NCBI GenBank assembly: GCA_031413715.1
Contig: JANOFO010000007.1
Coordinates: forward strand, 90,338 to 154,337
Direction of reading: 5' to 3'
Length of the DNA stretch: 64,000 bases
DNA from: Minisyncoccota bacterium
GTDB taxonomy: Bacteria; Patescibacteriota; Minisyncoccia; Phycocordibacterales; UBA9973
The translations under genes were made by a program, and so were the position numbers. A model generated the notes under the pieces. It did not search any database. It had not been told where the DNA came from and worked only from the letters and a program-made list of their open reading frames with translations. Numbering within the stretch: the stretch's first letter is position 1; each line of letters opens with the position of its first letter. Shown piece after piece: positions 3,122 through 27,236 of this stretch.

Positions 3122-4153
3122 TTATGCTGTTATATAGAGTCCTTGCTTATTCTTTTTGAAGTATTTGGAATTCTGAAGATTGACAAGAATAGTGTTCTTT
3201 TTTAAATATCTCTCTTTCATAACTTGATCAACGATATCTTCTTTGGACATCGGGCCGTTTTTCTTCAAGAGTTCCTTGATGACATCGCGAACGACGCCTG
3301 ATTTGTAACCCCATTCAGAAAGTGCATAGATACCACGCCCAACGAGAACAAACCTTGAATCTTTAATGAGTTCATTGTGGCAGGTAGCTGTGTGGCACTT
3401 TTTATCAAACGTAGCTGCAACAGCTTTTGCAACTTCACGAAAATGCATCGGTGAGCCATGCTTACGCATCATTAAGAATGCATAGTCTTTGACACCGCGA
3501 GTCTTTATGCTCGAAGAAGTAGACTTACCCCATTCGCCGAGCGGATTTCGGGAAATAGTCTTTGACATAGCGAGCCAACGCTTGGCGATCTCTTCATTCT
3601 TGTATTGTTCTGACAATGCTTTGACTTCTTCAAGAAACCTTGCAACAAGTTCACTTTCTGAAACTAGTTCATCATCGGAAAGATTCTCATACAGATTCTT
3701 GAGTGATGCATGAACTTCCTCTGCGATTTCATCATCAACGCTCCAACGAGTTTTAAAATGGTCGTCTTCTTTATGTTTCTTGAAATCATCTCCAAGGGTT
3801 AGATACAAGTGTATATGATTCTGAGTGAGCTTGTCTTTTGAAATATGAGAAAGAAGTTCTTGTTCGGAAACAACCGCACCGAGAGTGTGCATGAGCTTCT
3901 TTAATTCTTCAAAAACTGCTTTCTCGTCTTTAAAAGTGGTGGACTTACGGATAAGCGTAAGCGCAGCATTTTCTATCTGTCTGACACGTTCGCGTGTAAT
4001 GCCGTATTTTTCACCAATGGCTTCAAGGGTCTTCCTTTGCGCGTCGTCAGTAAGTCCAAAGCGATTTACTACCACTTCATATGCCCTCTCTGGCAGATTC
4101 GAGAGCATTCGCTTAGTGACTTGTTTTGGTTTAAATGTAATAGTATTGGCCAT
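3122..4153 (-). CDS. DNA-binding protein with an N-terminal sigma-70 region-4-like HTH and a C-terminal HARE-HTH-like domain
   Basis: GEKYGITRERVRQIENAAL resembles sigma-70 region 4.2. C-terminal ...RFVLVGRGIYALSEWGY resembles the HARE-HTH motif of RpoE-delta and ASXL proteins. Confidence 0.5.
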   Translation of the reverse strand: MANTITFKPKQVTKRMLSNLPERAYEVVVNRFGLTDDAQRKTLEAIGEKYGITRERVRQIENAALTLIRKSTTFKDEKAVFEELKKLMHTLGAVVSEQELLSHISKDKLTQNHIHLYLTLGDDFKKHKEDDHFKTRWSVDDEIAEEVHASLKNLYENLSDDELVSESELVARFLEEVKALSEQYKNEEIAKRWLAMSKTISRNPLGEWGKSTSSSIKTRGVKDYAFLMMRKHGSPMHFREVAKAVAATFDKKCHTATCHNELIKDSRFVLVGRGIYALSEWGYKSGVVRDVIKELLKKNGPMSKEDIVDQVMKERYLKKNTILVNLQNSKYFKKNKQGLYITA

Positions 4154-7277: not shown

Positions 7278-7811
7278 TTAACTCATTATCTCGGTTTCTT
7301 TCTTGGCAAAGACTGCTTCCAAGTTTTTGTTCGCTTCATCTACGCATTTCTGAATGTCCTCTTTGGCGCGATTCTTGTCATCTTCGCTCATCTCTGATGT
7401 CTTATCCATCTCATCTCCTCGCTCTTTCCTAACTTTAATACGAGCCTCTTCGAGCTTCTCTTTTAAGACTTTGGCGAGCTTGGTGCGATTCTCGGTAGTA
7501 AGCATTGGGAATATTACTCTTACCCCATCTGAATCTGAGGCAACGCTGAGTCCAAGGTTAGCGGCGGATATCGCAATCTCTATGTCTTTGATCTGATTTT
7601 TATCCCAAGGAGCTATGCGTAAAGTCTTTGGATCTTCAATATTTACAGATGCTACATTTTTAATAGGCATCCTTGATCCATAGCTTTCAACCTGGACGCT
7701 GTCGAGCACCATTGGCGTCGCCCGGCCTGTATGAACTTGCGCATACTCGTGACCAAGCCAATCTTCTGTCTTTTTTAATTCTTGCTTAAAATTTGTTGTG
7801 TTGTAAGCCAT
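7278..7811 (-). CDS. frr: ribosome recycling factor
   Basis: Full-length RRF-like 177 aa; ...VHTGRATPMVLD...IEDPKTLRIAPWDKN... Confidence 0.95.
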   Translation of the reverse strand: MAYNTTNFKQELKKTEDWLGHEYAQVHTGRATPMVLDSVQVESYGSRMPIKNVASVNIEDPKTLRIAPWDKNQIKDIEIAISAANLGLSVASDSDGVRVIFPMLTTENRTKLAKVLKEKLEEARIKVRKERGDEMDKTSEMSEDDKNRAKEDIQKCVDEANKNLEAVFAKKETEIMS

Positions 7812-18515: not shown

Positions 18516-18622
18516 TACTGGCCCTATATCGTCTAGCCTAGTTAGAATGTAGTGGATGTGGGCTTTTCAAACCGTAACAGGTAGCACAGTTGAAAATTAT
18601 TATGTTATTGTAGTTTAGTTAT

Positions 18623-18697
18623 GGCCCTATCGTCTAACGGTTAGGACATCGGCTTTTCAAGCCGGTAATCCGGGTTCGATTCCCGGTAGGGTCACCA
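18623..18697 (+). tRNA. tRNA-Glu (anticodon TTC), CCA encoded
   Basis: GGCCCTATCGTCTAACGGTTAGGACATCGGCTTTTCAAGCCGGTAATCCGGGTTCGATTCCCGGTAGGGTCACCA with anticodon loop TTTTCAA. Confidence 0.85.
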
Positions 18698-20309
18698 AAC
18701 GATTCACTTCATCCATAAATTCAGGTTCTATGTTGTAAACACAACATAATTCAGGAGTTTTAATAGTTGGATAGTGATAATAGAGATTGGAAGGAAAAAG
18801 TAGGGTTCTTAAAACTCTAAGGTCTTTCACATAGATGTCTTCCCAAATTTCAGGAAGATGCTTTAGAAATTCAACCCCTGTATCAACAACCCTATCTATT
18901 TCAAGTTCAGGAGAGGACAACTCACTCAAATCTTTTTGTAATTGCAATATTTCTATTTTGCACTTTTCATTTGCTGGTAAAAAGTCTTCATCTGATATCT
19001 TTGTTTCAAGTCTTAGATTTAGCAACTTATCTTTCTTGTCTCTTATTTCTGCAATCCTCATGTTAATTTTCTTTTCCGAGGTAGTAATAGAATTCAATTC
19101 ATTTTTATGAGCAAGTTTAATTGCCTCTTTGAGAACATCAAAGTGCTTATCATCAGGGGTCATCTTTGTAAGAAATTCAGTAAACTCTTCTTCCATATCT
19201 TTCTTTGGTATAGCAGTCCTCTTAGGACAATCACCACAAAAACAGCCATAATACTGGTAGTACTTGGTTTTACCTTTTGTCTTTCCTCCAGAGATACTCT
19301 TGCCACAACCACTGCATTTTATACCCCGCAGGGGATAGTCAGGACTATCCCTATTACGAGCTAACTTTCTTCCAGCCACACCTCTTTTATTACCACTACC
19401 ATTAGCTTCATTAAAGAGTTCAACAGAAATTATTGGTTTATGGCTACCTTCAACATCAACACCAAATTTTTGAACCACAATTCTGCCACAGTAAATTGGG
19501 TTTTTAAGGATTTTAGCGACTAGTTGCTTGCTTATTTTCATACCATGCCTACTTTTTTGTCCGCACTTATTTGCCAATCCTGCCAATTCCTTACAACTAT
19601 ATTTTCCCGTGATATGCTTCTCAAAAATCATTTTTATCACTGGTGCTCTTTCTGAGTGAGGAATAATAATTTTGTTGCCTAATTTATCTTTTGTATTTAC
19701 ATATCCCCAAGGAGCACCATTAGGCCATAAACCTTTGAGTGCTCTTGCTTTCATTCCTTCACCAGTTCTTTGAGACCTGACATCATTATCAAACTGAGCA
19801 AAGGCAGCCAGCATTGTTTCTTGCAATTTACCGCTAGGACTATCATCAAAAGCCTCTGTTACAGAAACTAAAGAGATATTTAATTTTTTAAGAAAGCTTC
19901 TAAATGCAAGATGTTCACCAGCGTTTCTGAAAAATCTATCAACTTTGTATATGACAACTCTGTCAATTTGTTTTTTGTTCTTATCACAGAACCTCAGCAT
20001 TTCCTGAAATCTTGTTCTGTTTTCCGTCTTCGCACTCTCTCCCTCTTCTCTAAATACTTTTAAGACAGTATGTTCAGTTCTTTTAGAGAATTCTCTGGAG
20101 AACTTTTCTTGATTGTCTAAGCTAAAATTCTCAACTTGTTCTTTTGATGACACACGCACATAGATGACATCATTTTTAGGTTTTTCTATTTTAGGTTTTA
20201 TTTTCATAAATTTGTTATTAGTTAATTTAAACTCTTTTCCCAAAAATCTCAAAATGTTTGTTCTGGAATTAAAGAGCTTATTGTTCTTGTAATTTGGTTT
20301 GCACGGCAA
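18657..20309 (-). CDS. large serine recombinase (integrase)
   Basis: VIYVRVSSKEQ catalytic-Ser motif, a recombinase domain, a zinc ribbon CSGCGK...YYGCFCGDCPK and a C-terminal coiled coil. The likely true start is the ATG at 20207 (MKIKPK...). The 3' end overlaps tRNA-Glu. Confidence 0.9.
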   Translation of the reverse strand: MPCKPNYKNNKLFNSRTNILRFLGKEFKLTNNKFMKIKPKIEKPKNDVIYVRVSSKEQVENFSLDNQEKFSREFSKRTEHTVLKVFREEGESAKTENRTRFQEMLRFCDKNKKQIDRVVIYKVDRFFRNAGEHLAFRSFLKKLNISLVSVTEAFDDSPSGKLQETMLAAFAQFDNDVRSQRTGEGMKARALKGLWPNGAPWGYVNTKDKLGNKIIIPHSERAPVIKMIFEKHITGKYSCKELAGLANKCGQKSRHGMKISKQLVAKILKNPIYCGRIVVQKFGVDVEGSHKPIISVELFNEANGSGNKRGVAGRKLARNRDSPDYPLRGIKCSGCGKSISGGKTKGKTKYYQYYGCFCGDCPKRTAIPKKDMEEEFTEFLTKMTPDDKHFDVLKEAIKLAHKNELNSITTSEKKINMRIAEIRDKKDKLLNLRLETKISDEDFLPANEKCKIEILQLQKDLSELSSPELEIDRVVDTGVEFLKHLPEIWEDIYVKDLRVLRTLLFPSNLYYHYPTIKTPELCCVYNIEPEFMDEVNRLVTLPGIEPGLPA

Positions 20310-20319
20310 ATAGCCACAT

Positions 20320-20526
20320 TTATGGGGAATTACCTGCTGACGCTAGTAAATCCTCCGCATTCTGTGGTTTTGGTGGTTTAAAGTGCTGTTTAATCTGTAG
20401 CCTGACGAGGAATAAAGCCAGTTCATATAGATTTTTGGCAGTTTTCTCTAAATCCTGTTCTGGAACTTTTGAATTGATTCTTTTCAGGTGTTCTATTATT
20501 TTTTGGACTTCTTCTGTGTTAAACAT
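20320..20526 (-). CDS. small hypothetical protein immediately upstream of the recombinase (candidate accessory or directionality factor)
   Basis: 68-aa ORF on the same strand, 11 bp from the recombinase track start; no motif recognised. Confidence 0.3.
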   Translation of the reverse strand: MFNTEEVQKIIEHLKRINSKVPEQDLEKTAKNLYELALFLVRLQIKQHFKPPKPQNAEDLLASAGNSP

Positions 20527-20598
20527 AAAAAATCCCCTGTTGGGGACTTCTTGAAGTCTATACTTTGAGTTTCTTTTAAGGTCCTAACTCATCCTAAT

Positions 20599-21327
20599 TC
20601 AGTAGTTTCTAAACACTGCTGGTTCTTGTTGGCGAAACAAGGATTGATTTATACCTTTTATTTTTAACTTCCTATTCAAATTAGCTACCAAATTTGAAAT
20701 TGATTTTTTCTCCCTCCCTCCCATTTTAGTATATTCATCTTTTTCACCTTTAATTGTTTCCCAGATATCACCATAGCTAACAGGTATTTTAGGTTTTGGT
20801 TTAAACATGATTTCACAGAAATAAGAATAATTTGTATTTGGATAAATCTTTAATTTTCTTTTACCAATAATAATTTCATTGTTTATATAATATGACTTTA
20901 GGTTAGATTTATAAATGCCTATATTTAATAATGTTTCAGTTTTTTTTAAAAATAATTTCCAGTTATATATTTCCAAAATCAATGAATCTTCATCATCTTC
21001 CAAGTAAACTCCTGAAACAGGGTTGATATCTTCTTTGGTCTGGGATACAATTTCATCCCCAATTTTAGTAATTGTTCCATTTAGAATATTTATCCATATT
21101 GACTCAGGATTAACTTCCCCTATATTCTGGTTTAGATATTGAATAAAATGCCTTGCCTCAGCTTTATTAATAGAAGATTCTTTTAGAGTATCAAAAGGTA
21201 TTTTCACTACCAAAGGCTCTTGTGTTGGAAATAGTACAGACTGTTCTTGAATCATTTTAAGCAACAGAGCTATTTGCTCTTCTTGGTGTAGGGTCAAGCT
21301 ATTTTCTTTCATACTTAAATAATACAT
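20599..21327 (-). CDS. hypothetical protein (element cargo)
   Basis: 242-aa ORF in AT-rich cargo; no motif recognised. Confidence 0.4.
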   Translation of the reverse strand: MYYLSMKENSLTLHQEEQIALLLKMIQEQSVLFPTQEPLVVKIPFDTLKESSINKAEARHFIQYLNQNIGEVNPESIWINILNGTITKIGDEIVSQTKEDINPVSGVYLEDDEDSLILEIYNWKLFLKKTETLLNIGIYKSNLKSYYINNEIIIGKRKLKIYPNTNYSYFCEIMFKPKPKIPVSYGDIWETIKGEKDEYTKMGGREKKSISNLVANLNRKLKIKGINQSLFRQQEPAVFRNY

Positions 21328-21589
21328 ACAAAAAGCAATAAAACAAAGCTTCTTTGATTTTTAGGTAAATAGAGGTAAAATGAAAGCATAATTTAATATA
21401 TAAAGTAGCCTAAACCTTTAGAAATAGAGGCATGGTGAAAAAACCAGTCAAGCATAAAGAACCTATCATATAGGGTTGCCTTGACTGGTCATATCTGGAA
21501 ACGGATATGGGGAGCGAAAGCTCTCACCTATGTGGTAGGCTTTTTGCGTCTTACCATGGGCTTATTATTAAAACGCAGAAAGAATCTTT

Positions 21590-22201
21590 ATGAAAAAATA
21601 TATTACAATTTTATTTTTAGCAGTATTAATAACCCCTTCAATTACTTTTGCTTCTTGGTGGAATCCTTTTTCTTGGTCAAAAGATTCCAAACAAGCTATA
21701 GATGTTATTGAGCCAACATTAATTCAAGCAACTGATAAATCCACCTCAGTAATTGAAACAAAACCTAAAGAAATTAAAGTTATTGAAAAAATAGTAGAGA
21801 AGCCAGTTATTCAGACTATTTCAGTTCAAGACCCTGCTTTACAGAAACGGATTAAACAACTGGAGTTAGAAAACCAAGAACTTAAATTACAGATAGAAAA
21901 ACTAAAGGCTTTACAACAACAAGTGCAAACACAAAAAGAAGAGATTGAATCATTAAAAAGTGTACCAGTCTTTTCAAAAGATAAAGAATGTGAGGAAGCA
22001 AAAGAATTCATTAATTCTACTGGTGAAAAAGTAACTGATTTAAGAGAACGGCAAGCAAAGGAAATTGCTGATTATATGAAGAACGGAATAAAATTGCAAA
22101 AAGACATAGACGCAATAAAAAATAAGTACCGTACAGAAGGAAGCCAAATTGACAAAAAAATCAAATCAGCTAAAGATAAAATTCAACTTTATTGTGATTA
22201 G
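21590..22201 (+). CDS. secreted coiled-coil protein
   Basis: Signal peptide MKKYITILFLAVLITPSITFASW, then a charged, Gln/Lys/Glu-rich coiled-coil-like region. Confidence 0.5.
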   Translation: MKKYITILFLAVLITPSITFASWWNPFSWSKDSKQAIDVIEPTLIQATDKSTSVIETKPKEIKVIEKIVEKPVIQTISVQDPALQKRIKQLELENQELKLQIEKLKALQQQVQTQKEEIESLKSVPVFSKDKECEEAKEFINSTGEKVTDLRERQAKEIADYMKNGIKLQKDIDAIKNKYRTEGSQIDKKIKSAKDKIQLYCD

Positions 22202-22235
22202 AAACTGTTGATTCTATCTAATTCTATCTACTTTT

Positions 22236-22552
22236 AAAAGACCCCTGAAAAGTGTTAAATAAACCAAATTAACCTAATTTAAAAAGACCTCAAAAAGTGT
22301 GTATTAAGCAAATTAAGCGAAATCTTTTTTGCTACTAAAACTTGGTATATATACCTAAATTAACCTAATTCTAGGATATTCCTCTAAACTGCTTATTTTA
22401 CAAATTTACCAAAATCATTTCTGGTCTCTAAAAGTGGTATTTATAGCAAATATAGCAAATCTCTTTTTGGGTCTGAAAAGTGTTAATTATATCAGTCTAA
22501 TCAGAATTTCTCTGGTGTCCAAAACTGCGAATTATATCAAAAGTATCAAACC
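22236..22552. repeat. about six degenerate direct repeats, 45 to 50 bp period, iteron-like
   Basis: Units share a core GGTCTnnAAAAGTGnTAnnTATAnC, for example gacccctgaaaagtgttaaataaacc, ggtctctaaaagtggtatttatagc, ggtctgaaaagtgttaattatatc and ggtgtccaaaactgcgaattatatc. They lie directly upstream of the CDS starting at 22590. Confidence 0.5.
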
Positions 22553-22589
22553 TTAAATTGGACTTTTAAATAGGCTTTATTGGTGTATA

Positions 22590-24107
22590 ATGCAAATTAT
22601 GTCTTCATACATTAAATCAATAAAAATTACTGAATTTGAAGGAGCTTTAGACCAGACTCTGGAATTTGAAGCGGGCTTAAATATCTTGAGCGGAGAAAAT
22701 GGAACTGGTAAAACAACGGTATTAAAGAAAATTAAAGAATTTGCAGGAGGTAATAATAGCAATTTAACTTTACTTTCTGACATTTCAGATATAACACTAC
22801 CAAACCAACTCAGTATTTACGCTCTTAGCCCAAAGAGAAATTCAGAAAAGAAGACTATAAATAATACTTTTTCACATCTCCGTTCTATAAGCAAAACGAT
22901 GGATACGCAGCTTGAGGAATTAAGAAATAGAGCAATTAACGATAATACTTTTGAAGCATATCCATCATTTGGAGAGTTATTTATTTTATATTTTGATGAA
23001 AAATGCAAAGACGGTGGAGAGCAAATTGGAAAGATGAATGAGGTAACTACTGAATTTAATAATCTTATACAAAAGGTTTTTCCTGAGTACTCCTTTGTTT
23101 CAAGTTGGGATTCCGTGTCTGGAAGACCAGATATAAACCTTAAAATCAGCAACCGCTCTCCCCTTAGTTTAGATAAATTAAGTTGTGGACAACAGGAAGT
23201 TCTGTCTTTGATATTTAACATTTATACTTCAAAGGGAAAATATAATATCTATTTAATTGATGAGCCTGAAATACATTTAAACTGGAACTTAGAAAAAGGA
23301 TTATTCCAATTTTTGGATTGGTTCTGTGTAAATCACAATAAGCAAATTATTACAGTTACTCACTCACGTACTATCTTTGAAGAACCATTTTATGAAAAGG
23401 CGAAGTTTTTGGTTTGGGAAGATGTAGTTATAAAATATCAAAGTGATATTTCTGATGCTCAGCGTGAAGCTATTGTAGGAGAATTAGCAGCAACCATAAA
23501 TGTTGTTGCTCCTACTTCTAAGACTTTCTTTGTTGAAGATAAAATGCATGAATTTGTTATTGATACTATTGCTCAAAAGCTAGGTAAAGTAATCTCAACA
23601 GTTAAGTGTGGAAACTCTGCAAATGTAAAAAGTTTCTATGGACTATCAAAAGATAAAAGTAGTGCTTGGAAAGAACATGGCTATTATGTTGTTGATGGAG
23701 ACAATGAGGGTAATCCTTTTCCAGGAGAACCAAGGTTTATCCACTTAAATAAATATTCCATTGATTCATATATATTTAACTTAGAGTTGCTTTCTGAGGT
23801 TCTAAATAAGACAGTTGAAGTTATACAAACAGAGATATTGTCTGTAATGCAGACAAAGAAATTAGCTATTTTTTCAAAAGGTAAAAATGCAAAATTTGGA
23901 CATGCATTGATAGACAAAATGACAAGCGATTACATAACAGAAGCACATTTGGCACTTGTAGATTGCACAGAAATTTTAGAAGGCTTTGCTCAATTACAAG
24001 GTAAATCATCGCAAGACTTGTTTGTAGAATATATTGAAAAGGCAAATCAAAAAGGAACATTGAATAGTATTTTTGACTCAGAACTTATTGACGTAATAAA
24101 TGCTTAA
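22590..24107 (+). CDS. OLD-family / PARIS-like ABC ATPase fused to a TOPRIM-like (DUF4435-like) C-terminal domain
   Basis: Walker A LSGENGTGKTT, ABC signature-like LSCGQQ, Walker B/D-loop IYLIDEPEIHLN and H-loop ITVTHS. The C-terminal FFVEDKMHEF...YVVDGDNEG fits a TOPRIM Glu followed by a DxD motif. Confidence 0.6.
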   Translation: MQIMSSYIKSIKITEFEGALDQTLEFEAGLNILSGENGTGKTTVLKKIKEFAGGNNSNLTLLSDISDITLPNQLSIYALSPKRNSEKKTINNTFSHLRSISKTMDTQLEELRNRAINDNTFEAYPSFGELFILYFDEKCKDGGEQIGKMNEVTTEFNNLIQKVFPEYSFVSSWDSVSGRPDINLKISNRSPLSLDKLSCGQQEVLSLIFNIYTSKGKYNIYLIDEPEIHLNWNLEKGLFQFLDWFCVNHNKQIITVTHSRTIFEEPFYEKAKFLVWEDVVIKYQSDISDAQREAIVGELAATINVVAPTSKTFFVEDKMHEFVIDTIAQKLGKVISTVKCGNSANVKSFYGLSKDKSSAWKEHGYYVVDGDNEGNPFPGEPRFIHLNKYSIDSYIFNLELLSEVLNKTVEVIQTEILSVMQTKKLAIFSKGKNAKFGHALIDKMTSDYITEAHLALVDCTEILEGFAQLQGKSSQDLFVEYIEKANQKGTLNSIFDSELIDVINA

Positions 24108-24158
24108 GGATGAATTCTCTAGATGTTTCTTTATGTAAAATTATGGTAAAATACAAAG

Positions 24159-24872
24159 ATGGAAACAGCAAGCCCTATTATAGTGGTTAGTACAGCAATT
24201 CTTACAAGCTTTTTTACATATTTTTTTACTTTCAATCAATACATAAAACAACGGCAAAGAGAAGAAGTAAGAAAAACATATATTGAAGATGGTATAGGTA
24301 GAGTAATGCAAGTCACAGAATCAGTTTCTCAGGCTTGTTATTTTAACTTTACAAAAGTAATTAGTGCACTAGATATTCTAGAAAGAAATTTTGGAGGGAA
24401 AGAGATTGAAAAAGAAATTTTAAATAATATTTTTCTGGAAATGCAAGATGTAAAAGTTGCCCCAGATTATGGAAATCTAAAATTGGCAATTTTTGATAAC
24501 CAAACCCTTATTATATGGGTAATTCAATCTTGGGCAGAATATCAAAAACTAAACGAATATCTAAGGCATTATATATTTCAAGAATTTAAAGCATACTTAA
24601 ATGATTCAACTTTATCCGAAGATAAGAGAAAAGAATTTTTGATTAAATTGAGAGAACAAGTTCGCAATCATTGGAACAGAGTAATTAACAACAATGAAAT
24701 ATTAAGGGGTCAGTTATTGTTACTACAAGTTGAAGCTGATAAAGCAAATATTTCAAATATTCAGGAGATAGATAACCTAGCAAAGAAAGAAGGGGTTTTA
24801 AAAGTTTTAAAAGCCATAGAAGATGGATATAAAAAAATTAAAGATAATCCAGTAGATATTACAACACTTTAA
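24159..24872 (+). CDS. hypothetical membrane-anchored protein downstream of the ATPase
   Basis: 237-aa ORF with an N-terminal TM helix, 52 bp after the ATPase stop on the same strand. Confidence 0.4.
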   Translation: METASPIIVVSTAILTSFFTYFFTFNQYIKQRQREEVRKTYIEDGIGRVMQVTESVSQACYFNFTKVISALDILERNFGGKEIEKEILNNIFLEMQDVKVAPDYGNLKLAIFDNQTLIIWVIQSWAEYQKLNEYLRHYIFQEFKAYLNDSTLSEDKRKEFLIKLREQVRNHWNRVINNNEILRGQLLLLQVEADKANISNIQEIDNLAKKEGVLKVLKAIEDGYKKIKDNPVDITTL

Positions 24873-25036
24873 AATTCAACTTCTAATTCCTAACATTTAA
24901 ATACCATTAAGGGAAGAGACTGGAAGTAGTTCTTGTTGGATAACCCTGTAATTTAAAGGTTTTTCAAAGTTAGAGATTATCTTTTCCAGCTCCTTAAAGA
25001 AGTTTACATAGGGTTTTGAGTCTGGTATCATTAAGG

Positions 25037-25085
25037 TCACACATACTTAAAAATCTGCACTGCTGCAGGTTTTTAAGTATGTGTG
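25037..25085. terminator. perfect 17-bp-stem hairpin between convergent genes
   Basis: tcacacatacttaaaaa ... tttttaagtatgtgtga around a 15-nt loop containing ctgcag palindromes. Confidence 0.4.
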
Positions 25086-25254
25086 AAAACGCAGGTATAA
25101 TTTTTCAGAAGAAAAATTGCCGAGTTGGGGTCGCGAGTACTTACGTAGAATTTGAGCAAAGCGAAAATTATACTTAGTAACTTGTGACCACATAGATTAG
25201 TACCTGTAAGGTTCGATAAGCGTACTCGCGGTCCCCATAGCTCACAAAGAAATT

Positions 25255-26394
25255 TTATTTACTATTTAACCCTCCAAAAGATGGGAAGTTGTGTACGTCG
25301 TAATCTTTTCTTATGTTTCGAAGATGTAATTTAATCGCCTTGTTATAGGTAAAACTTTTATCAAGAAGCAATTTTGCACCTTTAACGATTTCTGGAATCT
25401 TTTTTTCAATAAGATCATCTGCAACACAAGCCACTCTTTTACCCTCTCTCAAGAGCCTGTCACATTCTTTGGTTCTATTATCAAGAGAGGGGTATGAATT
25501 ACACTTAGGAAGAACCGAGTAAAATGGAACATCATTTAGGAAATATAATGGCCAACGACAGGTAGCAATTTCTAACCATGGCGTATCAACAAGAAAAGCA
25601 AGAAATGCAAAACCAGTATGTGGGGAAAGAAATATATCGCATTTTTCTATTAACGCTATCTGATTCCATAGACCGATATTGTATGCAGACTCCGCATTTT
25701 TAAGATGCTTGACCAAATAGTCTATATCATTCAAAGTAAAATCTTTTGTGAAAGTTCTATGATGGTCACTTTTGGTGATACCCGTAAAGTAAATTTTAAG
25801 ATTTGGTATTGCCTTTTCTAATGCCAAACAGATTTTAAGCCACATTTCAACAGACGGACTTTGCCTTAATCCTTTAGCGCCTCCAAGCATGATTACAACT
25901 GTAGGGCCACGATGCTTAAACTTCTTTGTGAATGTTTTTGCTTTTGTTGGAATAGGAAGGGTAATTTTTTGATTTGATACAGCCGGTAGAATACTACCTT
26001 CATTGTCTCCGTTTTGCTTAACATAGCCCTTTGCAATCTTGGCAACAAATATTTTATGTAACACTTCTTGAGTTTTTACTAACTCTGGTCTGTCGCTTAC
26101 TTTTACCAGTCGACCCGCTCGATTATCAGTACTTATATAATCCCAATTTTTGGGAATCCTTTGAAGACATTTTGCCTTTTCTCCGTCCTTGAAAACCTCA
26201 TCCGTTGAAATGGAATATGTTTTCTTAATCCATGGACATGCGTCTGCGAGTTCTGTCGGCGTATTAGCATTGAGCAACAAATATACATCAAGATTTTTGT
26301 TAGCGAGCGAATAACCCTTGGCAAGTTTTAATGCTTCAACTGCGTGCCCGACGGGTGGGTAGTATACCCAGTTAAGGAGTAGTTTTTTCTTCAT
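25255..26394 (-). CDS. glycosyltransferase family 9 (heptosyltransferase-like)
   Basis: VVIMLGGAKGLRQSPSVEMWLKICLAL and CDIFLSPHTGFAFLAFLVDTPWLEI resemble GT9 C-terminal motifs (KrWP...; DSGpmHlAaAlg.P). Confidence 0.55.
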   Translation of the reverse strand: MKKKLLLNWVYYPPVGHAVEALKLAKGYSLANKNLDVYLLLNANTPTELADACPWIKKTYSISTDEVFKDGEKAKCLQRIPKNWDYISTDNRAGRLVKVSDRPELVKTQEVLHKIFVAKIAKGYVKQNGDNEGSILPAVSNQKITLPIPTKAKTFTKKFKHRGPTVVIMLGGAKGLRQSPSVEMWLKICLALEKAIPNLKIYFTGITKSDHHRTFTKDFTLNDIDYLVKHLKNAESAYNIGLWNQIALIEKCDIFLSPHTGFAFLAFLVDTPWLEIATCRWPLYFLNDVPFYSVLPKCNSYPSLDNRTKECDRLLREGKRVACVADDLIEKKIPEIVKGAKLLLDKSFTYNKAIKLHLRNIRKDYDVHNFPSFGGLNSK

Positions 26395-26732
26395 GAGACA
26401 ATTATATCAAATCATGCGTATTTATCTTAGTTGTAAAATTGTGATAATTCTGATCTATGAGATAAAAATGTGAAAATACGCTTATACTACCAATAATCGG
26501 GTTCCAATTTGCACTAATATTAGGATCACAGATTTTAGCTTATATTATATAGCTCTATTCAAGTCGAAAGGCCTTGACTTTTGGGCTTATTTATGCTATT
26601 GTTCAAAGATAGGAGTGGATCTTTAACAAAATTTGTTTTCGAGATTGTTGCGAGAGTAGTTTTCGGCTTCCCTTTTTGCGAAGGTTAGAGCTACTCTCGT
26701 AAACAATCAAATTAAAAACAAAAAATAAACTT

Positions 26733-27236
26733 ATGACACCTGCAACAACTCCAGCTACAACAACTGGAACACCTACTCATCATGCAGCAGTACCTGCAAC
26801 CCCTGACAAAAAAAGTTATGGAGGCCTTGTGCTACTAATGGTAGTAATTGTAATTTTAATTATTATTTTACAATCAATACCTGGTAAAAAAACGACCAGG
26901 AGAGATACTCTGAAAAAACAACTTACTACTGTAGTACAACAAACATTTGATACCTATCCCCCAATTGATCCTCAAACCTTTGAGATCAATGGATCATTTT
27001 CAGAAAAGAAAATAATCCGGGACGGATATTATGTATCATTTGTATGTAATCAGCCGTATCAGATACGGAAAAGTAATGATAAATTAGTGGAAAGCGAAGC
27101 AAATAAATCTGCAAACATTGGTCTGTATAAGGCCGAGGAATCAATCGAAAATTCGCTTCTTGAATTCCGCACATTAAATGATGCGACCACAACAATGACA
27201 CTCATTTTCACACCGATGAAAATCAAAAAACACTAA
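26733..27236 (+). CDS. hypothetical membrane protein (Thr/Pro-rich N-terminus, one TM)
   Basis: MTPATTPATTTGTPTHH..., then the hydrophobic helix LVLLMVVIVILIIIL. Confidence 0.4.
   Translation: MTPATTPATTTGTPTHHAAVPATPDKKSYGGLVLLMVVIVILIIILQSIPGKKTTRRDTLKKQLTTVVQQTFDTYPPIDPQTFEINGSFSEKKIIRDGYYVSFVCNQPYQIRKSNDKLVESEANKSANIGLYKAEESIENSLLEFRTLNDATTTMTLIFTPMKIKKH

Follow-up and report, generated by a model that had tools for sequence, protein, structure and literature searches.

A tandem repeat array with unit-specific paired words is a self-contained non-coding module of a serine-recombinase/LOOT island in tRNA-Glu

The array and its island

The DNA analyzed here is a 64-kb window of a Minisyncoccota bacterium (contig JANOFO010000007.1); all positions are numbered along this whole window, and related loci carry labels such as L001 and L120. 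Between 22201 and 22560 lies an array of degenerate tandem repeats, which is a self-contained, non-coding module of a 6.35-kb island that is integrated in a tRNA-Glu gene and encodes a large serine recombinase and the LOOT RNA. The same hexamer, GGTCAC, occurs at the 3′ end of tRNA-Glu and at 25035–25040, and the island was therefore placed at 18690–25040. In alignments, homology with the elements L134, L136, and L137 stops at the right-hand copy. The G+C content is 31–37% in bases 18–27 kb vs. 40–45% in the flanks. GyrA cluster names assign the host, a metagenome-assembled genome, to the Patescibacteria (candidate phyla radiation). The only recombinase found in the island is of the large serine type (Resolvase/Recombinase domains), and no tyrosine recombinase was found. 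The island and its target contain the following features (aa, amino acids):

18623–18697, plus strand: tRNA-Glu(UUC), the integration target; left junction core GGTCAC at 18690–18695
18657–20309, minus strand: large serine recombinase with Resolvase and Recombinase domains and a Zn ribbon; its 3′ end overlaps tRNA-Glu
20320–20526, minus strand: 68-aa protein, of a family present in 21/23 element loci (see below)
20599–21327, minus strand: 242-aa protein with two winged-helix domains in its predicted structure, the C-terminal one of OmpR/PhoB/ToxR-type fold
21407–21525, plus strand: LOOT RNA (RF03000, 89.8 bits), followed by a hairpin and a T-run
21590–22201, plus strand: gene-1, the first cargo gene, encoding a 203-aa secreted coiled-coil protein
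22201–22560, no strand given: repeat array, units A–H, tandem and head-to-tail with a period of 44–47 bp
22563–24107, plus strand: ATPase cargo module, AAA_15/AAA_21 ABC-type, with DNA homology to L001 and L002
24159–24872, plus strand: partner gene of the ATPase, 237 aa, with an N-terminal membrane helix and no family match
24954–25040, plus strand: conserved right arm, ending in the core GGTCAC at 25035–25040; a block at 24954–25044 is kept in more distant elements

The array is located between the first cargo gene and the remaining cargo, an AriA/OLD-like ATPase and the 237-aa membrane protein. The 68-aa protein is possibly a directionality or regulatory factor.

Anatomy of the array

An earlier note on this DNA had described 22211–22589 as about six direct repeats of 45 to 50 bp in the leader of an OLD-like gene. 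The array is real and exceeds chance, but it consists of eight units and its period is 44–47 bp. Autocorrelation of 22202–22589 has maxima (z about 6) at lags of 45/46 and of 91/92, and the top value of 0.458 is above that of all 500 dinucleotide-preserving shuffles (maximum 0.41). In a sliding scan of the window, the array was the strongest periodic signal. Divergence between the units kept Tandem Repeats Finder (TRF) from calling the 45-bp period, and the program reported only short internal duplications of 9–10 bp. On the left, the array is limited by the stop codon of gene-1 (22199–22201); on the right, the ATPase homology block begins at 22563.

Units were located by their motif of an A-run followed by sTG, which gave anchors at 22201, 22248, 22292, 22337, 22385, 22430, 22476, and 22521. 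Each unit combines a linker (T-run, G+C core, and A-run), an anchor AAAAsTG, and a 9–10-nt word that is present twice in tandem, with 8–10 nt from the start of one copy to the start of the next. The G+C core takes the forms GGTCTCT, GGGTCTG, and GGTGTCC, or is inversely oriented (GACC) as in units B and C. A short quasi-palindrome, CACTTTT...AAAAGTG, is found in each unit. Only the anchor and the core, about 14 nt, are common to all units, and the word is specific to its unit: on average, 7.6/9 positions agree between the paired copies of one unit (shuffled tails, 5.7 ± 0.3; 0/2000 reach the observed value), whereas words of different units match at only 3.25/9. All units are written on the plus strand:

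Unit A, 22201–22247: anchor GAAACTG at 22201–22207; word ATTCTATCT(A) twice at 22211–22230; linker CTTTTAAAAGACCCCTG
Unit B, 22248–22291: anchor AAAAGTG; words AAATAAACC / AAATTAACC at 22257–22274
Unit C, 22292–22336: anchor AAAAAGTG; words ATTAAGCAA / ATTAAGCGA at 22303–22320
Unit D, 22337–22384: anchor AAAACTTG; words ATATACCTA / ATTAACCTA at 22349–22367
Unit E (degenerate), 22385–22429: anchor TAAACTG; words ATTTTACAA / AATTTACCA at 22395–22411
Unit F, 22430–22475: anchor AAAAGTG; word TATAGCAAA twice at 22442–22459; linker CTCTTTTTGGGTCTG
Unit G, 22476–22520: anchor AAAAGTG; words TTATATCAG / TCTAATCAG at 22487–22504
Unit H, 22521–22560: anchor AAAACTG; words TATATCAAA / AGTATCAAA at 22533–22550

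Unit E (22385) had been overlooked among the six unit starts proposed earlier, and a 10-bp duplication said to precede the repeats, ATTCTATCTA twice, is the word pair of unit A itself. The shared core quoted at that time, GGTCTnnAAAAGTGnTAnnTATAnC, is exact only in unit F. The words of the window array are direct repeats; a partial inverted copy is kept only in units D and F, and that of unit D (GGTATAT/ATATACC) resembles the arrangement in units of more distant relatives.

No ORF (open reading frame) of at least 50 aa lies within the array on either strand, and RNA folding is not significant (z = −1.7 and −0.95 for the two strands); a role at the DNA level is therefore indicated. No Rfam family matches the array. 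The pattern of core and anchor is not enriched elsewhere in the window. In viral contigs, a three-anchor DNA pattern returned, among the matches listed, only unrelated 45-bp tandem repeats, mostly coding, and a 19-mer of unit C (TGTATTAAGCAAATTAAGC) gave two chance matches inside a phage gene. The same 19-mer gave five chance matches in GTDB genomes, a collection that apparently does not include the window's own genome. Two further ideas were discarded: uptake signals, given the lack of core and anchor enrichment in the window, and guide targets, as the unit words recur in the island and window no more than by chance.

Independence of the array from the downstream ATPase

In a library of defence systems, the ATPase matched AriAB/AriA (PARIS-like) best and GajA more weakly. 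Its −10 element, TATAAT, lies at 22586–22591 and not at about 22577 as first reported. The ATG at 22590 was the choice of the ORF finder; translation probably starts at ATG 22599, judging by the resulting length of 502 aa, which is that of the homologues. The closest relatives of the protein share 88% (L001) and 84% (L002) identity. Their upstream regions are only 85 bp and 50 bp long, respectively, and the array is absent from both; L001 has two short unit-like repeats there (TTCGGGTGT twice and AAGCTTT twice) but not this array. DNA homology with the window extends over 22563–24107 for L001 and 22598–24107 for L002, with none beyond the ATPase gene block. Arrays of the identical type precede unrelated genes in the elements L120 and L123, described below. 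Because the two close homologues lack the array, and because the array precedes unrelated genes, it is, on sequence comparison, neither a part nor the leader of the ATPase gene. The earlier proposal of an operator array survives in part: protein binding is viable as a feature of the island backbone, but not as autoregulation of this ATPase.

The DNA of the ATPase gene is 82–83% identical among the loci up to its stop codon, and the gene behind it differs in each, encoding an HNH protein in L001, a 243-aa protein in L002, and the 237-aa protein in the window. The junctions are at 24108–24158 (window), 3333–3347 (L001), and 7364–7400 (L002).

What looks like a −10 or extended −10 element lies only about 6–8 nt ahead of the start codon at the cargo promoters of the window (22586–22601) and L001 (1810–1826) and at cargo starts of L123, L136, and L144. 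This spacing suggests leaderless or near-leaderless cargo mRNAs in these elements.

Conservation of the array in close relatives

Four homologues of the 242-aa protein were found, and three of their contigs, L120, L123, and L124, were compared with the window; the L124 contig ends just inside the recombinase gene. All three share a backbone of a serine recombinase overlapping the tRNA at its 3′ end, the 68-aa gene, the 242-aa gene, and a divergent LOOT RNA. Beyond LOOT follow a first cargo gene and then a long intergenic region with the array. Comparison with the window by blastn gave the following:

L120: backbone 84%; gene after LOOT unlike beyond its first 15 bases; array 86%
L124: backbone 74–77%; gene after LOOT unlike beyond its first 86 bases; array 86.7% (units A–F)
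L123: backbone about 80%; gene after LOOT alike only in its first 86 bases (signal peptide); array 69–81% in pieces, reordered

The repeats are kept in homologous elements, at about 86% identity in L120 and L124 and in recognizable but reordered form in L123, so that the refuting condition named in the earlier note did not apply. With 86% identity against 74–84%, conservation of the array equals or exceeds that of the coding backbone, and it is independent of the flanking genes. Unit-specific words can be traced one by one across the four elements, and neither the 19-mer of unit C nor TATATCAAAAGTATCAAA of unit H differs among the four arrays. In a three-way alignment, invariant columns make up 85% of the words vs. 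66% of the linkers (Fisher p = 0.0014). Homology between the elements breaks at the edges of the array, at 22199–22202 on the left and about 22554–22563 on the right. To the left, homology of the first cargo gene ends 15–86 nt into the gene; gene-1 shares only the signal peptide and the motif ASWWNPFSW with its equivalents in L123, L124, and L145, and the mature parts are unrelated. To the right, the genes downstream of the array also differ: the window has the ATPase, L120 a 90-aa ORF, L123 a gene for a DUF4365 protein, and L124 a methylase with R.HinP1I.

The arrays also differ in unit content. L120 has two units fewer, by an in-register fusion of the head of unit F to the word of unit H, and L123 has a different unit order. 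In L124, a 2-kb restriction–modification (R-M) cassette interrupts the array within the linker between units F and G, with units A–F before it and G–H after it (88% identity to the window); copies of the direct repeat TTGA(G)TTGTT border the cassette.

The words of the window array could also be read as parts of a cluster of leftward promoters. Each unit would then carry, on the minus strand, a −35-like core, a 16–17-bp spacer, and a TGn-extended −10 within the word, and the cluster would drive antisense transcription over gene-1 and LOOT toward the regulator and recombinase genes or trap RNA polymerase against read-through. In the window array, the minus strand has 5 occurrences of the motif TGnTAnnnT against 0.5 expected (0/1000 shuffles) and the plus strand has none, a consensus scan gave three full promoter-like matches on the minus strand, and L120 has 3 occurrences vs. 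0.58 expected (7/500 shuffles). Cargo promoters of these elements also appear to be of the extended −10 type. The enrichment is, however, marginal in L123, not significant in L124, and absent in all other array types; the count is inflated by the duplication of the words, and the element in unit G is not kept in the orthologues. On balance, a promoter cluster appears very unlikely from these motif counts.

Array designs in the wider element family

Recombinase homologues, their contigs, and a metagenome scan yielded 23 element loci, in which the presence of protein families was assigned by blastp clustering of called ORFs. The 68-aa family occurs in 21 of them, the 242-aa family in 8, and a small resolvase-like family in 5. 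LOOT (RF03000) was present in every one of these loci where the region was available. It was noted in the window, L120, L123, L124, L127, L128, L134, L136–L142, L144–L146, L148–L153, and L155–L160, where it points in the direction opposite to the recombinase-side genes without exception and has a hairpin and a T-run behind it. The distance from LOOT to the start of the first cargo gene, which is variable, is always 33–60 nt. No function or genomic context of LOOT was found in the searchable literature.

Arrays of several designs occur at the equivalent position in about ten loci, and the remaining elements show no array:

Window, L120, L123, L124: direct word pair after an AAAAsTG anchor; unit 44–47 bp
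L134: two rudimentary units
L136, L139, L140: an inverted copy of the word, then two direct copies; unit about 37 bp
L144, L148: ACCnnTATT-TAnnGGT-AAAAC-ACCnnTATTCAG; unit about 35 bp

In relatives, an array is always followed closely by the next cargo promoter, and the cargo downstream of arrays, where it could be classified, is defence-like (R-M, PDC-M36A, DUF4365, and HATPase+DUF4325). In the L144/L148 design, the matches between direct and inverted words are unit-specific (0/5000 permutations reach the observed value), and positionally corresponding units of the two loci show three-way compensatory changes. Unit-specific stems with compensatory changes are present in L144, L148, L136, and L139, and the L144 array folds far better than its shuffles (z = −6.2).

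As a separate observation, L137, L140, L150, and L153 have a conserved motif, TTTGTTTAT(C/T)CACAAA..AGAGGGATACTTAAAAAA, after a PD-(D/E)xK-like first cargo gene. It includes a perfect DnaA box (TTATCCACA) in L137, where it lies downstream of gene-1, and in L153; L140 and L150 have TTATTCACA. The DnaA-box motif of L137 and L153 has no counterpart near the window array.

The stems of L144, L148, L136, and L139, together with the fold of the L144 array, would suit an element acting at the RNA level, in which the array is cotranscribed with gene-1 as a 3′ untranslated region or small RNA of independent hairpins and serves to stabilize or terminate the transcript or to sponge an RNA-binding protein. 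The constant orientation of arrays relative to LOOT and gene-1 is in keeping with this. The window array, on the other hand, lacks both a significant fold on either strand and an Rfam match, and its words are direct rather than inverted apart from the partial copies in units D and F. A simple hairpin also leaves the third, direct word copy of the relatives unaccounted for, and an RNA-level role is a long shot.

The same family-wide data bear on whether the array has any selected function. An AT-rich spacer could have been amplified once and be decaying, with slippage keeping the short words alike, and the finding would then be ordinary. Such decay would fit the degenerate units that TRF does not call, the lack of an array in about half of the related elements, and the tolerated loss and reordering of units. 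It does not sit well with an array that is 86% identical beside a coding backbone of 74–84%, with words better conserved than linkers, with independent array types at the same position in diverged elements, or with the three-way covariation of words in L144 and L148 (0/5000 permutations). Functionless decay is therefore considered unlikely.

Possible cargo exchange at the array

The sharp edges of the array and the cassette in L124 raise the question of whether the units are docking sites for cargo, that is, recombination sites defined by structure or by the core, at which cassettes are gained, lost, and shuffled and units without genes represent empty cassettes. Several observations favor this. 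The edges of the array are exactly where homology between elements ends; the L124 cassette is precisely placed in the F-to-G linker with TTGA(G)TTGTT on both sides; units were reordered in L123 and two were lost in register in L120; ORFs adjoin or run into the anchors; the units of relatives are sequence-variable, hairpin-forming, and subject to compensatory changes; and the first cargo gene, 33–60 nt after LOOT, resembles a fixed first slot. Against these, any conserved module is expected to show a sharp homology edge, ordinary unequal crossing-over also yields in-register unit loss, and the L124 cassette is the single clear insertion event. Most cargo genes lack flanking units of their own, window-type units have no hairpins, and the island encodes a large serine recombinase and no tyrosine recombinase. 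The linkers are no closer to the attP/attB reconstructed around the GGTCAC core than shuffles are (p about 0.25–0.36); units as pseudo-att sites were rejected, as the resemblance ATCATT..GGTC.C was no better than that of shuffles, 126–178 of 500 of which reach the attP score. Taken together, recombination sites are a doubtful explanation.

A more specific form of this proposal treats the islands as an integron-like platform for cassette capture. LOOT would mark the fixed first slot, and the units would be docking sites defined by their design, a unit-specific word in direct copies with an added inverted copy in relatives, where defence cassettes are inserted, excised, and shuffled; the window array would be a row of empty slots before the ATPase cassette. 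This combination is decidedly unlikely, although an integron-like cassette system would be of high interest.

A candidate reader and the favored explanation

The 242-aa protein is the best candidate for a protein that might bind the array. Its structural model, built from a 25-sequence alignment, has a pLDDT (predicted local distance difference test) score of 88.5 and two winged-helix domains; it superseded a first model from 5 sequences (pLDDT 57), which was too poor for its matches to be meaningful. Foldseek aligned the predicted C-terminal domain with the DNA-binding domains of ToxR, AdeR, BaeR, PhoP, and OmpR/PhoB at probabilities of 0.85–1.0. Members of the OmpR/PhoB/ToxR class bind head-to-tail to direct repeats about one helical turn (10 bp) apart. 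A direct repeat with 10-bp spacing, AGGTAAAT/AGAGGTAAAAT, occurs in the divergent promoter region of the 242-aa gene itself; it is kept in L120, L123, and L124 and resembles the word pairs of the array. The protein has no sequence match in Pfam, NCBIfam, PHROG, or PDB, its family comprises 26 representatives in 1.8 billion proteins, and a tblastn search of the loci with the protein gave no matches. Within the family, the N-terminal domain is kept and the OmpR/ToxR-like C-terminal domain is swapped between close relatives. Since the array is retained while this domain is exchanged, only the conserved N-terminal domain could be a common reader; if one protein serves all four elements, binding would take place through that domain.

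A two-winged-helix protein encoded less than 1 kb from a direct-repeat array also brings to mind an iteron-type origin, with the 242-aa protein as a Rep-like initiator, the units as iterons, and replication of the excised island. Weak Foldseek matches to RepE, TrfA, and RctB over the full length and to the RepA WH1 domain in part, as well as co-occurrence of the family with arrays, point in this direction. The probabilities of these matches are, however, below 0.2, the protein lacks a Pfam, NCBIfam, or PDB sequence match, and no recognizable Rep protein was found. The units, spaced 44–47 bp apart, are not copies of one binding sequence; no DnaA box (TTATCCACA) was found at ≤1 mismatch in 21099–23183, and the window-wide count equals the chance expectation. 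A variable gene lies between the 242-aa gene and the array, and arrays exist without the protein. The iteron reading offered in the earlier note is very doubtful on these grounds.

The favored explanation, to which we assign a probability of about 0.3, is that the array is a DNA-level element for protein docking or a boundary, possibly bound by the 242-aa protein, and at the same time an evolutionary seam for cargo exchange. Each 45-bp unit would present its anchor, the conserved AAAAsTG, together with a pair of identical half-sites separated by one helical turn, and the eight units together would be a platform on which a DNA-binding protein docks, the best candidate being the island's own two-winged-helix protein (20599–21327) with its predicted C-terminal OmpR/PhoB/ToxR fold. 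Once coated, the array would be a boundary or have a regulatory effect between the transcription unit of LOOT and gene-1 and the defence-cargo promoter at 22586, and over evolution it would be the seam where cargo is replaced or inserted. We infer the binding of the array by any protein, the identity of the binder, and the regulatory or boundary effect alike. No rival explains the duplicate word in each unit, nor the triplicate with an inverted copy in relatives.

Several results weigh against this explanation. A single sequence-specific protein does not account for words that differ between units (3.25/9). In L144 and L148, inverted and direct copies of the words covary and the L144 array folds strongly (z = −6.2), which favors nucleic-acid pairing over read-out by a protein, at least in those elements. 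In the homologues from L123 and L124, other domains take the place of the C-terminal winged helix, yet the arrays of these two elements match that of the window. Foldseek E-values for the 242-aa protein are weak (0.03–0.2), because only about 100 of the 242 residues align. The co-occurrence of arrays with the 242-aa family, which speaks for the explanation (arrays in 7/8 loci with the family vs. 3/15 without it), comes from counts that are not phylogenetically independent; L136, L140, and L148 have arrays without the protein, and L145 has the protein without an array. Finally, the lower conservation of linkers may reflect slippage, as they are rich in homopolymers and may simply mutate faster.

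No description of such arrays was found in the searchable literature. If the array is a module for docking proteins or cargo, it would be a previously undescribed cis element that organizes the regulation or exchange of cargo in the tiny defence islands of Patescibacteria (candidate phyla radiation). Whatever the array does, the orphan LOOT RNA gains a genomic context as part of the backbone of tRNA-integrating serine-recombinase islands, and the rule that each unit repeats its own short word, seen in several array types, is unusual and provides a clear search pattern.

Features at and beyond the island ends

Immediately to the left of the intact tRNA-Glu gene, 18518–18590 repeats the 5′ half of that gene in degenerate form, anticodon loop included; this copy is possibly the scar of earlier integration events. 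At the right junction of the island, a near-perfect inverted repeat of 23 nt (25037–25086; 96% complementary, 4-nt loop) begins. Just outside the island, 25122–25247 on the plus strand has a strong RNA-like fold with a 14-bp closing stem (minimum free energy −47.9 kcal/mol, z = −5.06, 0/200 shuffles equally stable); it contains a T-loop-like motif (GGTTCGAT), is preceded by TATAAT about 25 nt upstream, and matches no Rfam family. A long stem at 26640–26710, CGAGAGTAG...CTACTCTCG, lies upstream of an ORF at 26733; an E-value search of 24900–26800 gave no Rfam match for it.

Comparison with known systems

In its manner of working, the array would come closest to repeat arrays of the regulator-binding or iteron type. 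At least one test speaks against each of the following: classical iterons, an operator specific to the ATPase, an array of RNA repeats, CRISPR, and mimicry of recombinase att sites. The iterons of a single origin (pPS10, F, and R6K) are near-identical 17–22-bp sites with a spacing of about 22 bp, accompanied by an AT-rich unwinding region and DnaA boxes. The window array resembles them in having several non-coding direct repeats in a mobile element near the gene of a predicted two-winged-helix protein. It departs from them in its units of 44–47 bp, each with its own word and only the short anchor and core in common, and in that neither a DnaA box nor a recognizable Rep protein was found. The sopC site of the F plasmid, which works with SopA/SopB, comprises twelve near-identical tandem units of 43 bp, every one of which contains a short inverted repeat. 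Tandem units of about 45 bp, a short quasi-palindrome in each, and a position directly after a gene are shared features, whereas the window units are degenerate and the gene upstream encodes a secreted protein; no ParA- or ParB-like partition genes were found among the island genes.

Known sites of OmpR/PhoB/ToxR-family proteins conform to a single consensus, with one or a few sites in each promoter. The half-sites of the window array are similarly 8–10 bp apart, and a protein with the same predicted fold is encoded 0.9 kb away; unlike those sites, the array has eight units with eight words, and L123 and L124 keep the array although another domain stands in place of the OmpR-like one. The attC sites of integrons share with these islands a region of variable genes beside a site-specific recombinase gene, a fixed first slot, and tight packing, and the units of L144 and L148 are sequence-variable with a conserved palindromic design, as are attC sites; one cassette also lies inside the L124 array. 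In contrast to integrons, there is no IntI tyrosine recombinase, the units are in tandem without genes, the window units are direct repeats and not hairpins, and the third word copy has no attC counterpart. An attC-type hairpin-forming palindrome is found only in the distant L144 and L148 and not in the window array.

ToxI and CRISPR arrays consist of near-identical repeats, with ToxI preceding an endoribonuclease gene and CRISPR combining 24–48-nt repeats, unique spacers, and cas genes. They resemble the window array in being tandem, of short period, and placed directly before a gene of defence type. The differences from ToxI are degenerate repeats, no significant RNA fold, and a downstream gene for an ABC/AAA_15 ATPase. 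The whole period of the window array is 45 bp, with a conserved part of about 14 nt and internal tandem duplications in place of "spacers," in contrast to CRISPR, and no cas genes were found. Unlike both systems, the window array is independent of the gene downstream of it.

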